DNA of 64,000 nucleotides from the NCBI GenBank assembly GCA_965199495.1, contig CBDASK010000003.1, forward strand, positions 544,001 through 608,000, in the 5' to 3' direction. The position numbers are program-made. The first letter of the stretch is position 1. Every line of letters starts with the position of its first letter. The stretch comes from Abditibacterium sp. (GTDB taxonomy: Bacteria; Armatimonadota; Abditibacteriia; Abditibacteriales; Abditibacteriaceae). Shown here one piece after another: positions 24,001 through 42,000 of the stretch.

Positions 24001-27000
24001 CGCTTCGGCGGAAGTGTGTTGACCGTTTTTGCGGTTGTGGAATCCATCGGGTCAAGCGGGTCAAGTGGATCCCAGACAAAAGGCGTGCAGCGATGCACGT
24101 CTAAATTGTCGGGGTCTGAAGCGTCGCGTCTGCCCCACATCAGAACGCGACCATTGCGTAGCACATGAGTGTGAATAGCCACGTTGGGAAGCAGAAAAAC
24201 AGGCGACCATAGTCCTTTCTCGGCGCTGCTTTCAATGCTGAATCGGAACGGCGCATTTTGCGCGGCAACCTCATTATCCGCTCGCACCGAATCATTGCCA
24301 CCAGCGTCGGCGTGCAGAAAAGTTAAATCGCGGTCGCTGTAAGCGAGCTGGAGATAGTATTGAATTTCATCGCCAGTCTGGAAAGCCTTTGAAGTTTCTG
24401 CGGAAATGGTGGCCGTAAAATACTTGTTGTTCTCCACTTCTCTGAAAAACTTCATCGGCAATTCTGTCCAAGGCCCGGCGTTGCCATTTCTGAAAAAGAC
24501 ACTGCTGCCGTCCTGCAACTGGTTGCCCTGCCCGGCGCCGCCCTGAAATTGGTTGCCACTGATAATCGTGATGGCCATTCCCGGAACGAGTGCGCCGTTG
24601 GGATCGCGCATGGCTCCGCGCCCACGAGGTTCGGGATGGTTAGGAATGTGCCATGCGTTGCCGAAATTTGCCATTGTTTTTCTCCTTAATCAGAGGTTGT
24701 ATCTCACCAAAACACGCAGTGCGGGCGACGTGGCTACAACATGAGCCACGTCGCCCGCGCTCTGGGGTTTTGGTGAGATGGAATGCCATCTTTTCACTTT
24801 TTATACGCCGGTTCAGCGTGTATTCGCGCGGCGCGGTTCTCGCTTACCCGGCCATTCGCGGGTCTGGGGCCGGGGCCGTCATGGCTACGGGCATCGGTTC
24901 GGCCACAACGCCGCCTTTTGGATCGTAGACCGCCACGCCAACCAGAGAATCAGCACACCCGTAATAGAGGAACCATTTTTTGTTGAAACGCACTAAACCC
25001 TCGGTGAAAGTCGTGCCGCCGATGTATTGGCCCCTCATCTCGAAAGGCAATTGCGGTTTGTAGAAGGGTTCGTCCAGTCGGCCCAAAAGTTTCGCGGGAT
25101 TGCTGGCGTCGAAGAGAGCCTGACCCGCAGCATAGGCATCGCGCCCCAGACCCGGCGCACCATTGCTATCGCTATTTTTGCCGTTGTAAATCAACAGAAT
25201 ACCCTGCTCTGTCACCACCGGCGGCGGCCCCACTTCGGCCAGATTGCTATCGAACTTGCCCCGCCGAGGACTGAGGAGATCGAGCAATTTTCCCTGCTCA
25301 TCCTCGACGGGTTGCCAGTTGATCAGATCGTCCGAAGTCGCCAGATGGATGCTGCCTTCGCCCCAATACATCCAATATTTTCCGTTGATTTTAGCGGCGA
25401 TTAAGCGTCCTTTGGCCGGGCGGGCGAGAATCCCCGCCGATTTGTAACGTAGATCGCTGTATTTGCCGCCGTAAGCCTTGGCGAAGGCTTGGCCGTGTTT
25501 AGTCCAATGCACCAAATCTTTGGAAGTCGCCACGCCCACGCGAAATGTCGAGCGATTCCACTGGGTGTAGGTCAAGATGTAAGTGCCATCTTCGCTTTCC
25601 GTGATGCGCGGGTCTTCGCAGCCACCGGGCCATTCGTTATCTTTCTGAACGTCGTTATCCGGGTAAAATACCGGAGTTGGCGCCTCGGTAAAATGCAATC
25701 CATCGCTGCTTTGCGCCAGCCCCAACCGCGAAGTATGATGGCCGATCTCCATCGTGCCGGAATCGTCCTCAGCGCGATAAAGCACGTAAATTTTACCGTC
25801 CCGCACGACAGCCGCCGGGTTAAAGGTATGCAGCGCTTCCCAATGAACCTGCTGTCCGCTAACGGGATCGAGAAAGGTGGATTTGGGATTGGGCTTGATG
25901 AGCGGGTTAATGCCCGCAGGTCGCACAAACGGTCCCAGCGCCCATTTCGGTAACGGCTGAGTCGTCGCCGTCGGGTCGGCGGAAGCACGCGAAACCATCA
26001 AAAAGCCAGCGCCCACCACGAGAGCAACTCGCAGGATTGGAAGGCAACGTGGCTGGTCGAAAGAGCGCAATAGAGGCGCGCGGAGGAAGTTTAAAAATCG
26101 CATCGAGGACTTGATTGACGTTGGATATAAATAGAGCGTAACCTAAATTTTTTGGCAATTTTGCCAACGGGACTAACGTCCTTAAAAATACAAGCGAACT
26201 TAGAGGTTGTGCTTGAATGGAGTCATTGGCTGTGTTTTGCGGTTTGGAGCGCGGGATTTATCCCGTTCAGAGCGTTGGATTTGCGTTCAATTCCCGGCAG
26301 TTTCTTGTTTTGACGGGCTAAAGCCCGCGCTCCAAACTAGTTCACAGTTTCTATAACTGTATTCGGGCACAGCCTCTGAACATTAAGGAACCGGCACGGA
26401 ATTCTTAATGAGCGCGGCGCGTAAATCTTGAGCTTTCGATGAGAGCAAAAGTAAAAGAGCCTACCATCGCTAAAATTATCTTTATATTTTCGGATTATCG
26501 CAACTCCGATTTGGCGATCCTTTCGTCAATCGCCCGCTTCGGCGAGCAGACTGGCGAACGCGGTCACGAAACTGGCGCCGTTGGAGCCGTCGGGATCGGC
26601 GATGTCGTCGGTTGCGGGCAAAATCGTGGTGTCGAGCGGGCCGGGCCACAACGGTTGAATGCGGCCCAATCCGCCTTCGCCCAGCCAGCGTTTCACCAAC
26701 TCGAAACTGGAAGCCGGGTGGCCGAGACTGATCCATTCCGCGCTCGCGGGCGTGCCGTTGGGCGCCGCGACGCCGAGTTTGGCGGCCATCAGATTGCGAC
26801 GAAAAGCGCGCACCTGCTTCGAGTAACCGCGCTCCAACTGGCGGTCGAACGAAGCGATAGCCGCCGAGCCGTCGAAGGTGAGGCCGCGCCTGCGAAAATG
26901 AGTCGCGCCACTGAGGCACCACACATCATCAACGAACACGCAGGTCGTGCGGATAAACGCGGGCCGACCGGGAAAACCGACGGGATGAAACACTACGACG

Positions 27001-39000: not shown

Positions 39001-42000
39001 AATTCGCCAAAAGCGGCGCGATGCCCGACCCGGCAGAAGTGCCTTCGGGCCACGGCGCCGTCAGCCCTTCATCGGCGGCGTGGCTGGTGTTGGTGGAACG
39101 CGTCGTTGAAGGCGGATTGTCCTCGATTTGGGCGAAAGCGCGCGTGCCGTCGTCGGTGGACAAACGGCCATCGGACGTGCGCGCGGGCGGCTGATCGAAG
39201 CGAAAAAACGCTTCAAAATGGTCGGTCGCGGCGGCGCCGGGCACTTCGGCGCTAACGGGCACGCTCGCGCCCGCCGCCAAATCCACTTGAACCGTCAGAC
39301 TGGTGCCTTTATCAACGCCGCCGACCGTCCATCTGGCGTTGGTGGGCACATCGGTGGCGAGTTTCACCGTCGCTGTCGCAGGCGTTTCGCCGCTCAAAGT
39401 TAGGCGAGGCGCCCCGACTTCCAAACCGCCGCGCGTCGCCGAAAGCGTCTCGATTTGCGCGGGCGCGCTTCCTGCGGGCAACGCCGTGCCGGGCGGAGCG
39501 GGCAGCGAGGCGGGCAAACGGTTGGCGACGGCAGTGAGCGTCGCCGTTAAAGGCGTCGGGCGACTATCGGTAACGCTGATGAGAATGGTGCGCGGATTGG
39601 CCGACGACAAATCGCACTCGAAAACACGCCCCGCAGTGGGCGCCGCGCCATCGAAGCCAACCGAAGCATTGTAGGGCGTGAGGCCGCCATTCACATCAAC
39701 GATGAGCCACGTGTGCGGCGGCAGCGTCACCGTCGCGTGCGTGTCATCGGTGCGAGTGATGGCGAAACTTTGGCCCGCGTCGTCATAAAAGCGGGCGCCC
39801 AACGTCAGTTTGCCGCTGCCCTGATTGATCACTTCGAGGTCGAAATCTCCGGTGATGCCCGCCGAGGCGCCGAACCCGATCAGCAGGTTGCGCGCGCCCG
39901 CATCAACGGCGAAATCGTCGGCGCCGTGCGGCGCGATGAAGAGGCGAATTTCCGGCAGATACAGTCCTGTCCAGCTTTCATCGAAGCCGAACTGCGCCAA
40001 AACATCGGGCGGTGTCGAGTTATCCGACAAATCGAGCGTGGCGGAGCGAAACCCAAATCCCACCACTTTCGATGGCCCGATAAACGCGTAAGGCGGCTCC
40101 ATCGTCACCAACTGCGCGACCCCGATATCTTCGGTGGCATCGAGCGAACTGGCGCCCAACGACAGCAACTCCACCGTGAGCGGCGCAACCACGCCCGAAC
40201 CCTGCGCCAAGCGTATTTTGATGCGCGGCAGGCTAATTTTAACCGAAGTTTTGGTGGTATCTTCGACGAGTTGCCCGTTGGGAAGCAATTGCGCGGGCCG
40301 CAAAAATGGGGGGCGCAACACGATTGTGGTCAGCAGCAGATCGAGCGTAAATTCGGTGTCGGGATAATCGGACGGCGACGAAACGGCGGGCGTGGCGTCG
40401 AGCGCGGCCAAAACCGCCGCAGACGGCGCAAATGCGGGCGCGCCGCCAATGGCTCCGACCGCCGCCACCACTTTTTGCGAGGCAACACGCGGCGCAGAAA
40501 GTTGAAACTCGATGTGGGCGTCGCGAATATCGAACCACGGATCGCGGCGTCCATCATCGTTGGAGGGATGGCCTTCGGTGTTTTCGGCCTGCACGCCAAA
40601 CGTCATGGTGGACGGGTCAACGAAGGGATGAACTTCGCCGCTAAAACGAGCGACGCCGCTAATCACGATGCCGGTTTCATCGGTGGCCACCGAATGTTCA
40701 TCAACAAACATCACCGACAGCGCGGCGTGCCACGCCCCGAAACTATCGCCCAGCAACGCGTAGCTGCTGATGAGATCGAACAATGCGAGATCGAATGCCA
40801 TGAAGGATCACCTTTTTGCTGCTCTTTTGCTCAATTGAAACTAAAAAATGGGATTATCTTATATTTTTCCGTGACTTTATTAAATGAATGATTACGCCAG
40901 AGATGTTATCAACGCCTCCCCTAAAGATGTCTATTGTGATTTCAATCGGTGTCTCTCTTTCTCAGAATTTTGTTCGTTAACATCCTATTTACATCTTTTT
41001 TATTGCCACTGACAATTCAATTATTGCACAATAATTCATTATAATTTTGTGCAAATCAAGAACCGAACGCGATAAGTTTTCCAACTAATTTTTGTGCCTT
41101 GTTGTAGCAGAGAAAAACACAAAATTAGTTAGGGAATCATGAGGGACGTGTTAAGGCTGCGCATTATGCAATAACTCGCTGGGCGTGGTTACGCGAAAAA
41201 TTGCCGAATATTCCCATCGTCTATATTTCCGTTGATGCTTTCATGAAATAATAAATCTTGTGCAGTGTCCTGTTTGGAGCGCGGGCTTTAGCATCTTGAT
41301 TATTTAACCGAGAAGTCCAAGTTGGTCGCAACCACATTTGTCCTGCGAGACTAACATGAGTCCCGCTAAGACATCGCTTGCTGCTGCTGCTCGGTTAGGA
41401 AGTCAAGGTGCTTTAGCCCGTCTGGACGTTGAACTCGCGTTGAATTTGGGCGGATGCGTGGTTTAACAGGCTAAAGCCCGCGCTCCAAACGGCCCACTGA
41501 ACAGGCTATGGTTGGGGCAAATTGGGCACGAAATGACCCTGGCGCGTGTTGCCGATCCATTCCCATTTGAGGTTGTCTTTGGCGCCCGCTTGTTGCGGCA
41601 CGTCGGAACGATAGGCGGCCCACATCGCATCTACAAAAGCATCGTGGGAGTGGCCTTCGCTTTTGGGACGCGGCGTGGCTCCTCGTCCGGCGGCGTAATC
41701 GTCTTGTTGAGCCATCCATCGGTCGCTATAATCAAAAAACGCATCGTGATTCCACAGGGCTTTGGCGCCCATCAGTTCCACGGCGAGCGCGGTTCCCGGA
41801 TAACCGCCCGATACGACGGTGCGATAGCCTTCGGATTTCTTGTCGCTATCGTTCCAGGTCGTCGGGTCTTTTTCTTCATAGGGCTGGCGCGGAAACGTGT
41901 GGTAGGCCATTTGGTAGAGCGCCTTCTGGGCCGCCGCGCCCTGACCGAAATAGGTCTGCTGGTCTTCGGAGAAAAGCGTTGTGGAAGCCAATTTTTGCAG

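Follow-up and report, generated by a model that had tools for sequence, protein, structure and literature searches.

The window analysed here is a 64,000-nt stretch of Abditibacterium sp. (GCA_965199495.1, contig CBDASK010000003.1, 544,001-608,000), and coordinates are positions within it. It contains an operon of three very large genes, here called G, M and T. Stop-free translations confirmed the three minus-strand ORFs described in an earlier note on this DNA (Table 1). The TGA stop of G is followed, after a single base, by the ATG of M. GC content was 0.60-0.65 over 26-40 kb versus 0.50-0.59 in most flanking 2-kb bins, and the cassette is a GC-rich island amid ordinary chromosomal genes. 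No further phage genes were found nearby, and no signal peptides were visible by eye at the N-termini of the three translated sequences. The sole Pfam match in the three proteins was DUF6603 in G (residues 995-1223, E 4e-11, 42.6 bits), of which no mention was found in the literature searched. NCBIfam searches of G, M and T returned nothing, and PADLOC models matched neither these proteins nor an upstream 493-aa ORF.

Table 1. Features of the G-M-T cassette and its surroundings (positions in the window)
Feature	Position	Strand	Basis
G, giant gene, 2359 aa (P0001)	33722..40801	-	ORF, stop-free translation
G 1-327, conserved N-terminal domain	39821..40801	-	AF2 model m4a6be1c752e1, mean pLDDT 85.6
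G 328-430, Ig/PKD-like beta-sandwich	39512..39820	-	VIA fold matches
G 521-688, OmpA-like (Pal/MotB/TagL type) fold	38738..39241	-	VIA, Pfam in distant homologues
G 834-880, three predicted hydrophobic helices	38162..38302	-	AF2 model positions 94-140
G 884-1402, DUF6603 core, about 28 long antiparallel amphipathic strands (predicted)	36596..38152	-	AF2 model, Pfam
G 1598-1934, CBM-like jelly roll with variable insert	35000..36010	-	VIA fold matches
G 1941-2359, conserved C-terminal part	33725..34981	-	Alignments; Paracoccus and Haloferax giants
M, middle gene, 1204 aa (P0002), counted from ATG	30106..33720	-	ORF, stop-free translation
T, third gene, 1103 aa (P0003)	26526..29837	-	ORF, stop-free translation
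T 69-165, phage tail-fibre N-terminal domain	29343..29633	-	PHROGs, PDB and tblastn sequence matches
T 862-1005, PLD-fold domain, degenerate HKD motif	26823..27254	-	hhalign
Palindromic repeat element in M-T spacer	29863..30068	.	82-nt arms, 99% complementary
Hairpin repeat directly downstream of T	26242..26337	.	Inverted pair I7, direct repeat D1
Second hairpin repeat, upstream of G	41259..41503	.	Inverted pair I2, direct repeat D1
AT-rich region upstream of G	40802..41258	-	Sequence read directly; 40-42 kb bin GC 0.527

The spacer between M and T measures 268 nt here versus 5-35 nt in closer loci. It holds a palindromic element with 80 matches on both strands, at about 40 places in the same genome, which is an inserted host repeat outside the ancestral cassette. 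Two copies of a hairpin repeat bracket the cassette; direct repeat D1 pairs the 41259-41503 hairpin with 26296-26337 (83% over 42 nt), and just 5 sites in the 4.8-Mb genome carry the 21-nt core of this repeat. The AT-rich region upstream of G presumably holds the operon promoter and leader, and a simple promoter scan of it called none on the strand of G.

Recurrence was assessed in 76 loci (2 from genomes and 74 from metagenomes), in which G and T were sought by tblastn. The order G, M, T on a single strand was constant across these loci, as had been claimed before. All 39 loci that extend 7.3 kb or more upstream of M contained G, and 38 of the 45 that extend 3.8 kb or more downstream of it contained T. 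The earlier note had attributed the missing copies of T to contig ends only, but seven loci lacked T despite room downstream of M, and the T query had no match anywhere in two Arthrobacter genomes, which carry G and M only. More remote relatives varied further: in Haloferax, genes resembling G and M are accompanied by a third gene with Baseplate_J, Paracoccus carries a G-like and an M-like gene, and Mycetohabitans encodes a DUF6603 giant together with a 1322-aa protein and a PLD protein whose HKD motif is intact. On the basis of the G and T counts, the Arthrobacter genomes and the Haloferax third gene, the invariant core is therefore G plus M, a pair present in Bacteria and in a haloarchaeon, with a swappable third gene; the unit is not the fixed three-gene set proposed earlier.

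Clustering of the flanks of all 76 loci (1074 ORFs of at least 100 aa) gave no family present in more than 5 loci, and a search for M in 40 sampled relatives, among them 12 members of the same genus, found it in none. The source names of homologues included Acidobacteria, Gemmatimonadetes, Myxococcota, Cyanobacteria, Chloroflexota, Proteobacteria, Paenibacillus, Arthrobacter and Nitrospira. Thus, the cassette is a self-contained operon spread by horizontal transfer between distant microbes, and in this respect the earlier description, of a scattered cassette with no shared neighbours, was borne out. It should be noted that divergent loci had peptidoglycan hydrolase and PG_binding_1 neighbours and that a 5-locus subgroup carried a Zn-phospholipase C as fourth gene.

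The third protein provided a sequence link to phage tails. T had 341 homologues, and the 120 listed were 51-92% identical. Its residues 71-168 matched PHROGs tail-fibre families (phrog_6427, 1.3e-17; phrog_8469, 3.5e-16; phrog_30299, 4.7e-12; phrog_25788, 5.6e-11), a link that the earlier note, which was right about NCBIfam, PADLOC and, apart from DUF6603, Pfam, had missed. T also matched residues 8-103 of PDB 8jov, a 'putative tail fiber protein' (E 1.3e-5 with a single sequence, 3.8e-10 with a profile), and 23 phage records by tblastn, in the 69-165 stretch only; a search of the T alignment against IMG/VR found nothing. Judged by these matches, T 69-165 is a phage tail-fibre N-terminal domain. 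At the other end of T, the previously suggested PLD-like domain was upheld: it aligned with a 12-sequence PLDc_2 alignment (hhalign probability 93.4%, E 2.6e-7) and with the Mycetohabitans PLD protein (94.7%), whereas the controls M and G gave 0.1% each, and it is a true PLD-fold homologue. The motif itself is degenerate. The position of the catalytic His is R963 (27 Arg and 1 Lys, n=28) and that of the catalytic Lys is T965 in 28 of 28, D970 is kept, and GSxN reads G977-A-T-H980. Canonical HKD chemistry is thus excluded, although the domain keeps an invariant Arg/His/Asp cluster and is highly conserved, not polymorphic.

For M, 107 homologues were found, and no match was obtained in Pfam or in PDB sequences, nor any link to gpJ-type proteins by sequence or profile. 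Remote homologues of M in Haloferax (hhalign 97.1% over 709 columns) and Paracoccus (96.0%) each adjoin a DUF6603 giant. ESM Atlas features of M resembled those of FN3-bearing clusters (0.85-0.91), which is a lead only, and the suggested likeness of M to tail tips rests on predicted folds from the earlier reading.

G had 215 homologues at E<=1e-3; among the 120 listed, identity was 43-67%, mostly over the full length, and residues 741-1475 as query retrieved 994 cluster representatives. The protein is predicted to fold well, with pLDDT 81-86 in the modelled parts. No recognised fold was found for residues 1-327, since no structure-search match covers this domain, and the ESM Atlas gave no usable match for 1-430; the Paracoccus giant retains the N-terminal domain (hhalign 89%, residues 149-353). 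Residues 328-430 matched PKD and Ig domains (VIA Z 8-9, rmsd 2.2-3.0, 80-97 residues aligned), and Pfam PKD exceeded its cut-off in the distant homologue P0373. The OmpA-like region matched Pal 4b5c (VIA Z 10.2, rmsd 3.0, 112/119 residues). Its profile matches to OmpA-like domains in the PDB were weak (E 0.036 and 0.4), and two distant homologues, P0385 (41.2 bits) and P0373 (28.3 bits), scored above the Pfam OmpA cut-off in the corresponding region. G611, S614, E616, N626, L629 and R633 were invariant in 32 sequences, Arthrobacter and Paenibacillus included, and some G homologues carry PG_binding_1 as an extra domain. The CBM-like region matched 8wc1 (VIA Z 9.8, rmsd 3.0, 134/151 residues) and CBM4-2 (Z 9.3), and the C-terminal part is kept in the giants of Paracoccus (hhalign 95.9%, residues 1959-2261) and Haloferax.

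Between the OmpA-like and CBM-like regions lies the putative membrane module. Residues 838-858 were the sole 19-residue helix window with mean Kyte-Doolittle above 1.6 across G, M and T, and one of the predicted helices in 834-880 is long enough for a membrane span. The model of the DUF6603 sheet (mec3294f5a1b0) had a mean pLDDT of 81.3 and a pTM of 0.44, and the mean hydropathies of the two strand faces were +2.32 and -0.99. The best Foldseek matches of this sheet were LptD (7e-5), FimD/PapC ushers and ApoB100. In the wide VIA search the top 31 rows were all membrane beta-barrels, nearly all of the bacterial outer membrane, with Z 13.1-9.9 but rmsd 7-13 A; all barrel matches had a high rmsd (7-17 A). 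The ApoB100 belt reached VIA Z 14.6. Neither G nor M matched any of 50,697 phage records. A phage-tail link is upheld for T 69-165 by sequence and for the Haloferax third gene through Baseplate_J, but not for G, which makes up half of the cassette and shows neither tail-tip traits nor phage-record matches, and the earlier interpretation as a whole is partly supported.

The cassette seems to join one phage tail-fibre part, a cell-wall anchor fold and a very large porin-like sheet, and G adds Ig/PKD and CBM-like binding modules and a hydrophobic helical segment; such a domain make-up is that of cell-envelope-engaging machinery. The extra PG_binding_1 in some giants, the peptidoglycan hydrolase and PG_binding_1 neighbours of divergent loci and the Zn-phospholipase C of the 5-locus subgroup are in line with this. 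Our preferred reading, held tentatively and with less than even confidence, is a complex without a tube that engages the envelope and inserts into a membrane, and whose ancestry lies partly in phage tails. Computation shows the gene structure, the domain folds, the homologies and the distribution; for assembly, location, membrane insertion and target we infer the following. G, M and T would assemble in the cytoplasm, because none has a signal peptide, into a tube-less, tail-tip-like complex in which M is the beta-sandwich scaffold. T would be a fibre-like adaptor, its N-terminal domain being the one that attaches phage tail fibres to the tail, and its PLD-like end may bind a phosphate-bearing envelope ligand or cut it by non-canonical chemistry. 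G would fix to the wall through its OmpA-like fold and push its amphipathic sheet into a lipid membrane. The complex would probably serve to attack or penetrate the envelope of another cell once released from the producer. Several observations count against this reading. Besides the lack of signal peptides, the flanks of the 76 loci hold no gene for lysis, secretion or immunity that accompanies the cassette, and exit from the cell and self-protection are therefore unaccounted for. Also against it are the absence of phage-record matches for G and M and of IMG/VR matches for the T alignment, the high rmsd of the barrel matches and the pTM of 0.44, the reliance of the tail-tip likeness of M on the folds of the earlier reading, the conserved end domain of T and the exclusion of canonical HKD chemistry. 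Furthermore, the cassette occurs in the monoderms Arthrobacter and Paenibacillus and has a relative in an archaeon, and therefore a role tied to the outer membrane or peptidoglycan cannot be general.

Among the alternatives, an anti-phage abortive-infection system is unlikely. The tail-fibre-like and beta-sandwich parts would then be intracellular mimics or sensors of incoming or assembling phage tail parts and the giant would kill, its amphipathic sheet and hydrophobic helices entering the cytoplasmic membrane from the inside once triggered. Known defence systems include PLD-fold proteins, proteins without signal peptides are cytoplasmic by default, and the cassette is sporadically distributed in an HGT-like manner and lies on an island of atypical GC; one divergent locus adjoins a Type ISP restriction enzyme, and toxin-antitoxin genes are found near the relatives in Mycetohabitans and Paracoccus. 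However, neither PADLOC, on the three proteins or the upstream ORF, nor recurrent neighbours in the flank clustering pointed to defence, and the proteins that typically bear OmpA-like, PKD, CBM-like or PG_binding_1 domains are extracytoplasmic. The identity of G across phyla (45-67% over 2359 aa) would also be unusual for a protein tracking fast-evolving phage tails. A tripartite Tc (ABC)-like toxin against eukaryotes such as fungi, amoebae or invertebrates is a reading that we consider improbable, with G as receptor-binding, membrane-penetrating A-like subunit and M and T carrying and presenting an enzyme-like end domain. Three very large genes (about 2.4k, 1.2k and 1.1k aa) without signal peptides, Ig/PKD and CBM-like modules in G, an enzyme-fold domain near the C-end of T, the phospholipase C gene of one subgroup and plant-, fungus- or lichen-associated hosts (Rhizobium tropici, Mycetohabitans endofungorum, Paracraurococcus lichenis) are consistent with it. 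Yet Pfam detected no TcA, TcB, TcC or RHS family, and TcdA1, although among the weak Foldseek matches of the N-terminal part of G (E 1.9e-3, probability 0.10), was at noise level. The membrane module of G is a predicted beta-sheet rather than a helical channel, a wall-binding fold of the OmpA-like type would have no evident purpose in a weapon against eukaryotes, and the end of T is conserved, not hypervariable, and without the HKD catalytic residues.

That same OmpA-like fold, together with the large barrel-like sheet, recalls OmpA, OmpM and SlpA-type tethers, and surface proteins often contain Ig, FN3 and CBM-like modules; one Paracoccus homologue is annotated 'outer membrane protein'. A structural complex of the producer's own envelope with an unrecognised export route, for instance an adhesin or an assembly of the surface or outer membrane that is anchored to the wall, is nonetheless quite improbable, given that no signal peptides are visible and that Arthrobacter, Paenibacillus and Haloferax (the last with a relative) all have no outer membrane. 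M was also not found in the 40 relatives, same-genus ones included, and the cassette is therefore not a core envelope part. A decaying prophage remnant without present function is scarcely credible: the tail-fibre domain in T and the host repeat between M and T would fit it, but all three frames are intact here, G was matched by tblastn near full length in most loci with room, as were M and T, and no other phage genes lie nearby. The conservation data contradict such decay, as full-length homologues with 45-69% identity number in the hundreds and come from different phyla. As to the membrane-inserting complex that we prefer, the end domain of T counts against it, being conserved where toxin tips are polymorphic. 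The sole structural analogues of the predicted DUF6603 sheet are lipid-facing sheets, namely those of outer-membrane barrels and the ApoB belt.

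The cassette comprises the giant gene g00637 (G), the middle gene g00636 (M) and the third gene g00635 (T). The TGA stop codon of G is separated by one base from the ATG of M, and a GGGAGGA-like site lies just upstream of the M start. The spacer between M and T measures 268 nt in the window versus 5-35 nt in closer related loci. It is occupied by a palindromic element that matches the host's own 4.8-Mb genome 80 times, counting both strands, which corresponds to about 40 places. Because a palindromic host repeat fills the spacer and the gap is so short in the closer loci, we regard it as a later insertion. 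By its behaviour, the element resembles a host repeat of MITE or REP type that entered after the arrival of the cassette. Two further hairpin repeats lie on either side of the cassette and include a 42-nt direct repeat (83% identical, 15,153 nt apart). Since their common core occurs at only 5 places genome-wide, two of the five flank the cassette island; they could be recombination scars, insertion scars or terminators.

Features of the cassette and its surroundings, with positions counted from the first base of the window
Feature	Position	Strand	Description
G	33722-40801	-	ORF, 2359 aa, translated without stops
M	30106-33720 (counted from ATG)	-	ORF, 1204 aa, translated without stops
T	26526-29837	-	ORF, 1103 aa, translated without stops
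Palindromic element filling the M-T spacer	29863-30068		82-nt arms, 99% complementary, 42-nt centre
Hairpin repeat on one side of the cassette	26242-26337		21-nt core in common with the repeat on the other side
Hairpin repeat on the other side of the cassette	41259-41503		21-nt core in common with the repeat on the first side
Peroxidase/Kelch group	17633-24674		two adjoining animal-type haem peroxidase genes (647 and 522 aa) and a galactose-oxidase-like Kelch protein (870 aa)
143-aa ORF	44248-44679		matches LacI-type periplasmic-binding-like domains in their C-terminal part only (Peripla_BP_3 positions 54-167)

The GC content is 0.60-0.65 over the cassette versus 0.50-0.59 in most flanking bins. 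The flanks consist of chromosomal genes, namely the two haem peroxidases, the galactose-oxidase-like protein, GH130, a polysaccharide deacetylase and two-component systems. As an oxidative gene cluster, the peroxidase/Kelch group is unusual for a bacterium, and the 143-aa ORF looks like a truncated regulator gene. M was found in none of the 40 relatives searched, 12 of them from the same genus. A search for the empty site found the GH130 neighbour in two of five same-genus genomes and the 493-aa neighbour in none, and no insertion site could be reconstructed from the neighbours in these five genomes.

Homologues numbered 341 for T, 215 for G and 107 for M, and were full-length among the matches listed. 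Their source names included Acidobacteria, Gemmatimonadetes, Polyangiaceae, Nostoc, Kouleothrix, Pseudomonas, Polaromonas, Chromobacterium, Methylobacillus, Paracraurococcus, Nitrospira, Paenibacillus and Arthrobacter. A scan of genome contigs with a single M sequence gave only 2 loci, and recurrence was therefore tested on metagenome contigs, which contributed another 74 (76 loci in total). By tblastn, G was present in all 39 loci whose sequence extends 7.3 kb or more upstream of M, and T in 38 of the 45 loci that extend 3.8 kb or more downstream of it. Gene order was G, M, T on one strand without exception, and none of the gene families obtained by clustering 1074 flank ORFs occurred in more than 5 of the 76 loci. 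Thus, the cassette travels alone, as the earlier note had proposed from the fixed order and the lack of common flanks, and its constant part is G plus M. The same clustering revealed no lysis, secretion or immunity gene that travels with it. On the other hand, the view that all T misses reflected contig ends, and with it that of a fixed three-gene set, had to be revised: T was missing despite sufficient room in seven loci, two from Arthrobacter, where the cassette lies between housekeeping genes, and five divergent metagenome loci. Nor did our T query find a match at any other place in the two Arthrobacter genomes.

In about 15 more divergent loci (for example, L032, L041, L049, L052, L056 and L072), the tblastn match to T began at about residue 163, and the 250-540 nt after M had no match to T. 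Judging from this starting point, these loci have a diverged or replaced version of T residues 1-160, the stretch that contains the tail-fibre docking domain. We also considered co-variation between the C-terminal end of M and the N-terminal end of T as evidence of contact. This was dropped, because both ends fade in the more divergent clades and the signal is confounded by overall divergence. A complex prediction for M residues 400-1204 with T residues 1-190 of the window scored 0.00, which counts neither for nor against binding.

G matched DUF6603 (Pfam PF20248) at residues 995-1223 with 42.6 bits, above the cut-off of 27 (E 4e-11), and a six-frame search of its own genome with this family returned the same place. 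It was the only family that Pfam named in the cassette; NCBIfam named nothing in the cassette proteins, and the literature searched held no paper that names DUF6603 and nothing else of relevance. The structure of G was predicted as two models (residues 1-740 and 741-1940), each from a 47-sequence alignment. In the first (mean pLDDT 85.6), residues 1-327 form a domain with no fold match, to which second-look runs of the VIA fold comparison likewise added nothing, and ESM Atlas gave no usable match for residues 1-430. Residues 328-430 are modelled as an Ig/PKD sandwich (Z 8-9), and Pfam PKD is above its cut-off at the same position in a distant homologue. Residues 521-688 adopt an OmpA-like fold, aligning 112 of the 119 residues of Pal (4b5c) at Z 10.2 and rmsd 3.0 in VIA and also matching TagL, MotB and OprF. 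Pfam OmpA (PF00691) gave no match in the window's G and was above cut-off at the same position in the distant homologues P0385 and P0373; weak OmpA-like matches were also obtained in a profile search of the G alignment against PDB sequences. The motif residues G611, S614, E616, N626, L629 and R633 did not vary among 32 sequences, some of them from monoderm hosts. R633 is the candidate Arg of the wall-binding Asp/Arg pair of OmpA-like domains; the alignments yielded no assigned position for the Asp. Some giants carry an extra PG_binding_1 domain.

The second model (mean pLDDT 81.3, pTM 0.44) places three hydrophobic helices at residues 834-880, followed at 884-1402, the DUF6603 region, by about 28 long antiparallel strands in a meander. 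Foldseek ranked LptD, usher pores, ApoB100 and SlpA at the top for this sheet (E 7e-5 to 1e-3). In a search independent of Foldseek, the top 31 rows were all membrane beta-barrels, nearly all of them of the bacterial outer membrane (Z 13.1-9.9), and the ApoB100 belt came first in the second-look VIA run. As all of these matches had an rmsd of 7-17 Å, they show a similar architecture rather than a similar shape. The two strand faces, averaged over the alignment, differ in hydropathy, at +2.32 (strongly hydrophobic) and -0.99 (polar). For residues 1598-1934, the model predicts a CBM-like jelly roll (Z 9.8, rmsd 3.0). The best match of the second model among viral folds in BFVD was unconvincing (E 1.3e-4, TM about 0.1), and tblastn of G and M against 50,697 phage records gave no match. 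By inspection, no signal peptide was visible at the N-termini of G, M or T, and a basic-hydrophobic leader was absent from G. The domain types of G (OmpA-like, PKD, CBM-like and, in some homologues, PG_binding_1) are those of envelope-acting proteins, and the only analogues of the modelled DUF6603 sheet are lipid-facing.

T carries a phage-type domain near its start and a phospholipase D (PLD) fold at its end. Residues 71-168 matched four PHROGs families (E 1.3e-17 to 5.6e-11), three of them annotated as tail fibre, and the matches to phrog_6427, phrog_8469 and phrog_30299 began at profile positions 9-11. About the same region (69-165) matched residues 8-103 of the PDB entry 8jov, a 'putative tail fiber protein', with E 1.3e-5 from the single sequence and E 3.8e-10 with a 28-sequence profile; it was the sole PDB match of the T alignment, and a literature search gave nothing relevant on 8JOV. 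Among the 50,697 phage records, 23 matched T by tblastn, all inside residues 87-198, and the T alignment had no relative in IMG/VR.

For the end domain, Pfam gave nothing in T, its PLD models matched none of 28 family members, and a six-frame PF13091 search of the own genome did not hit T. Profile comparison bore out the PLD-like end domain proposed earlier: residues 862-1005 aligned with a 12-sequence PLDc_2 alignment from relatives' genomes at an hhalign probability of 93.4% (E 2.6e-7), the whole T alignment did so at 88.2%, and a PLD protein of Mycetohabitans was matched at 94.7%; the M and G alignments, used as controls, gave 0.1%. The earlier note had left it open whether the invariant His residues of T sit in HxK(x)4D motifs. 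Over the catalytic motif HxK(x)4D(x)6GSxN, where the Mycetohabitans protein reads VHSKLMIVDD...GSTN, T reads IRTTCVFVDD...GATH. The catalytic His is replaced at R963 by Arg (27 of 28 sequences) or Lys (1 of 28) and the catalytic Lys at T965 by Thr in all 28, while the Asp and the Gly of GSxN are retained; H951, R958, H980 and R982-R984 are invariant. Each T protein has one PLD-like unit. Taken together, the profile matches and the replaced His and Lys indicate that the end of T has a PLD fold with canonical HKD chemistry excluded, and a phosphate-binding or non-canonical catalytic role may be inferred.

Less could be assigned to M. Pfam gave nothing for M or any of 32 family members, nothing matched PF13550 (Phage-tail_3) at E≤1e-10 in the own genome, and a profile search of the M alignment against PDB sequences had no match. 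ESM Atlas returned unnamed FN3-bearing clusters at 0.85-0.91, a weak lead. One homologue bears the UniRef name 'Tip attachment protein J domain-containing', which was not reproducible. According to the folds of the earlier note, M may be a long beta-sandwich/FN3-like chain with a Z of 9.3 to the T1 tail-tip chain and a resemblance to that of lambda, for which the sequence and profile searches gave no support.

Distant relatives came from a plasmid search with G; the records were then annotated and compared by profile. Rhizobium tropici pRtrCIAT899c carries G, M and T in order. Paracoccus aminophilus pAMI4 has a 2554-aa giant followed by a 1114-aa protein; Haloferax mediterranei pHME322 has a 1858-aa giant, a 1370-aa protein and a 1142-aa Baseplate_J protein; and a Mycetohabitans endofungorum megaplasmid has, with transposases at the borders of the locus, a 1322-aa protein, the PLD protein (509 aa) and a 2496-aa DUF6603 giant. 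Hhalign supported the three distant giants at 100%, 99.9% and 99.7% for Paracoccus, Haloferax and Mycetohabitans, respectively, and linked the M alignment to the Paracoccus partner at 96.0% and to the Haloferax partner at 97.1% over 709 columns. The third Haloferax protein matched Baseplate_J (PF04865) with 47.3 bits, above the cut-off of 21.1 (E 2.1e-12); T compared with it gave an hhalign probability of 0.04%, and PF04865 was not found in T. The Mycetohabitans PLD protein matched PLDc_2 (1e-16). A search with G residues 741-1475 against 1.84 billion representatives yielded 994 clusters at E≤1e-3, in two size classes of about 2200-2500 aa and 1700-1800 aa.

Additional genes were seen beside some cassettes. 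In a five-locus subgroup (L030, L032, L033, L036 and L066), a fourth gene lies on the same strand 83-138 nt downstream of T; in L032 (L032:12215-14731), its product of 838 aa carries a zinc-dependent phospholipase C domain (E 1.3e-8). T-less divergent cassettes adjoin cell-wall genes (L078:12396-14766, L079:3582-4520 and L079:13869-14723), which encode PG_binding_1 proteins, a hemopexin/cell-wall-hydrolase-like protein and a glucosaminidase with two PG_binding_1 repeats. Canonical DUF6603 proteins of Actinomycetota were found in 5 of 301 genomes (about 1150 aa, Pfam E 1e-108 to 1e-115; L123:6368-17424 and L124:749-12122), and one genome (G173) had four DUF6603 copies. In two of eight regions, such a protein was followed by two large Pfam-dark genes; in the other six, the ORF picks were probably on the wrong strand. 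These operons are a second uncharacterised family of large-gene operons. They were rejected as a functional clue to the cassette, with hhalign probabilities to the G and M alignments of at most 4%.

The 14-kb operon is maintained at 45-69% identity over at least nine bacterial phyla, with recognisable relatives of two core genes in a haloarchaeon, and because of this conservation it must do something important. Based on the envelope-type domains, the lipid-facing analogues of the sheet, the fibre domain of T and the wall and membrane accessory genes, we tentatively favour, well short of confidence, a tube-less, envelope-engaging and membrane-inserting complex. The accessory genes of subgroups (peptidoglycan hydrolase, PG_binding_1, Zn-phospholipase C and HKD-intact PLD) point at wall and membrane. 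A fuller version, which we consider speculative and rather unlikely in all its parts, would be a new envelope-breaching machine common to Bacteria and Archaea. In it, G, M and, where present, T would act without a tube as an 'injectable porin', placing a giant porin-like sheet into a foreign membrane without Sec or BAM, with a phage-type fibre adaptor for aim and a wall anchor for hold; it would have parts in common with virus tail tips and not derive from any known tail. If the giant sheet does insert itself into membranes, it would represent a new route to very large beta-barrel pores and a new class of inter-microbial weapon or defence. The question of function is directly testable, since the carriers of the cassette, or of a related one, include the tractable hosts Pseudomonas fluorescens, Rhizobium tropici CIAT 899, Chromobacterium and Haloferax mediterranei.

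Several other explanations should be weighed against the membrane-inserting complex. An abortive-infection defence system seems a rather unlikely answer, and neither the three cassette proteins nor the 493-aa ORF upstream matched any PADLOC-DB 2.0 model at E≤1. That the cassette is a dead prophage remnant can hardly be entertained. The earlier note had likened its parts to the end of a siphophage tail. Compared with tail-tip and baseplate modules (lambda gpJ, T5 pb3/pb4 and baseplate J/gp47), this stands for the fibre N-terminal domain of T and for the Baseplate_J third gene of the Haloferax relative, and the folded M chain would also be alike. It does not extend to G, whose framework, an OmpA-like fold and a porin/ApoB-like sheet, has no convincing viral counterpart in BFVD, nor to the surroundings, where tube, tape-measure, distal-tail, sheath and capsid genes are absent; in addition, G and M lack phage-record matches, the M alignment reached an hhalign probability of only 0.03% against a three-sequence Phage-tail_3 alignment, and the sequences are conserved across phyla, unlike phage host-range parts. 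The phage link is limited to one docking domain and the Baseplate_J of a relative, which makes the cassette a test case for the recombination of virus tail modules with cellular envelope domains.

A structure of the producer's own envelope is improbable. G does resemble wall-tethered outer-membrane barrels (OmpA, OmpM/SlpA, LptD and ushers) in having an OmpA-like fold followed by a large amphipathic sheet. However, it shows no Sec leader, is 2359 aa long with many extra domains, occurs in the monoderm Arthrobacter and Paenibacillus with a relative in the archaeon Haloferax, and has an rmsd of 7-13 Å to every barrel. The ApoB100 beta-belt is alike in Z (14.6 over 334 aligned residues), Foldseek score (E 1.4e-4) and its one hydrophobic strand face, but at an rmsd of 16.8 Å and 4% sequence identity the likeness is of architecture only and implies no evolutionary link. 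A Tc-like toxin is also unlikely: although the cassette has in common with the Tc (ABC) toxins three large co-oriented genes of similar sizes with no visible signal peptides, a largest subunit that bears binding modules, and a patchy distribution, its proteins gave no TcA, TcB or TcC/RHS Pfam match at E≤1, TcdA1 appeared among the Foldseek matches of G only at E 1.9e-3 (probability 0.10), G has a sheet instead of a helical channel, and the end of T is conserved instead of variable. With the HKD phospholipase D/Nuc superfamily (PLDc_2, PF13091), T has the fold of residues 862-1005 and the Asp and Gly in common, and the HxK(x)4D motif is intact in the stand-alone PLD protein of the related Mycetohabitans cassette; in contrast, T has replaced both His and Lys, lacks a Pfam PLD match and has a single unit per protein. 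Measured against what defines tail-tip modules, HKD enzymes, outer-membrane proteins, Tc toxins and catalogued defence systems, the cassette fits none of these classes. Single domains have been taken over from several of them, and we rate the cassette as a new kind of system with a putative function.
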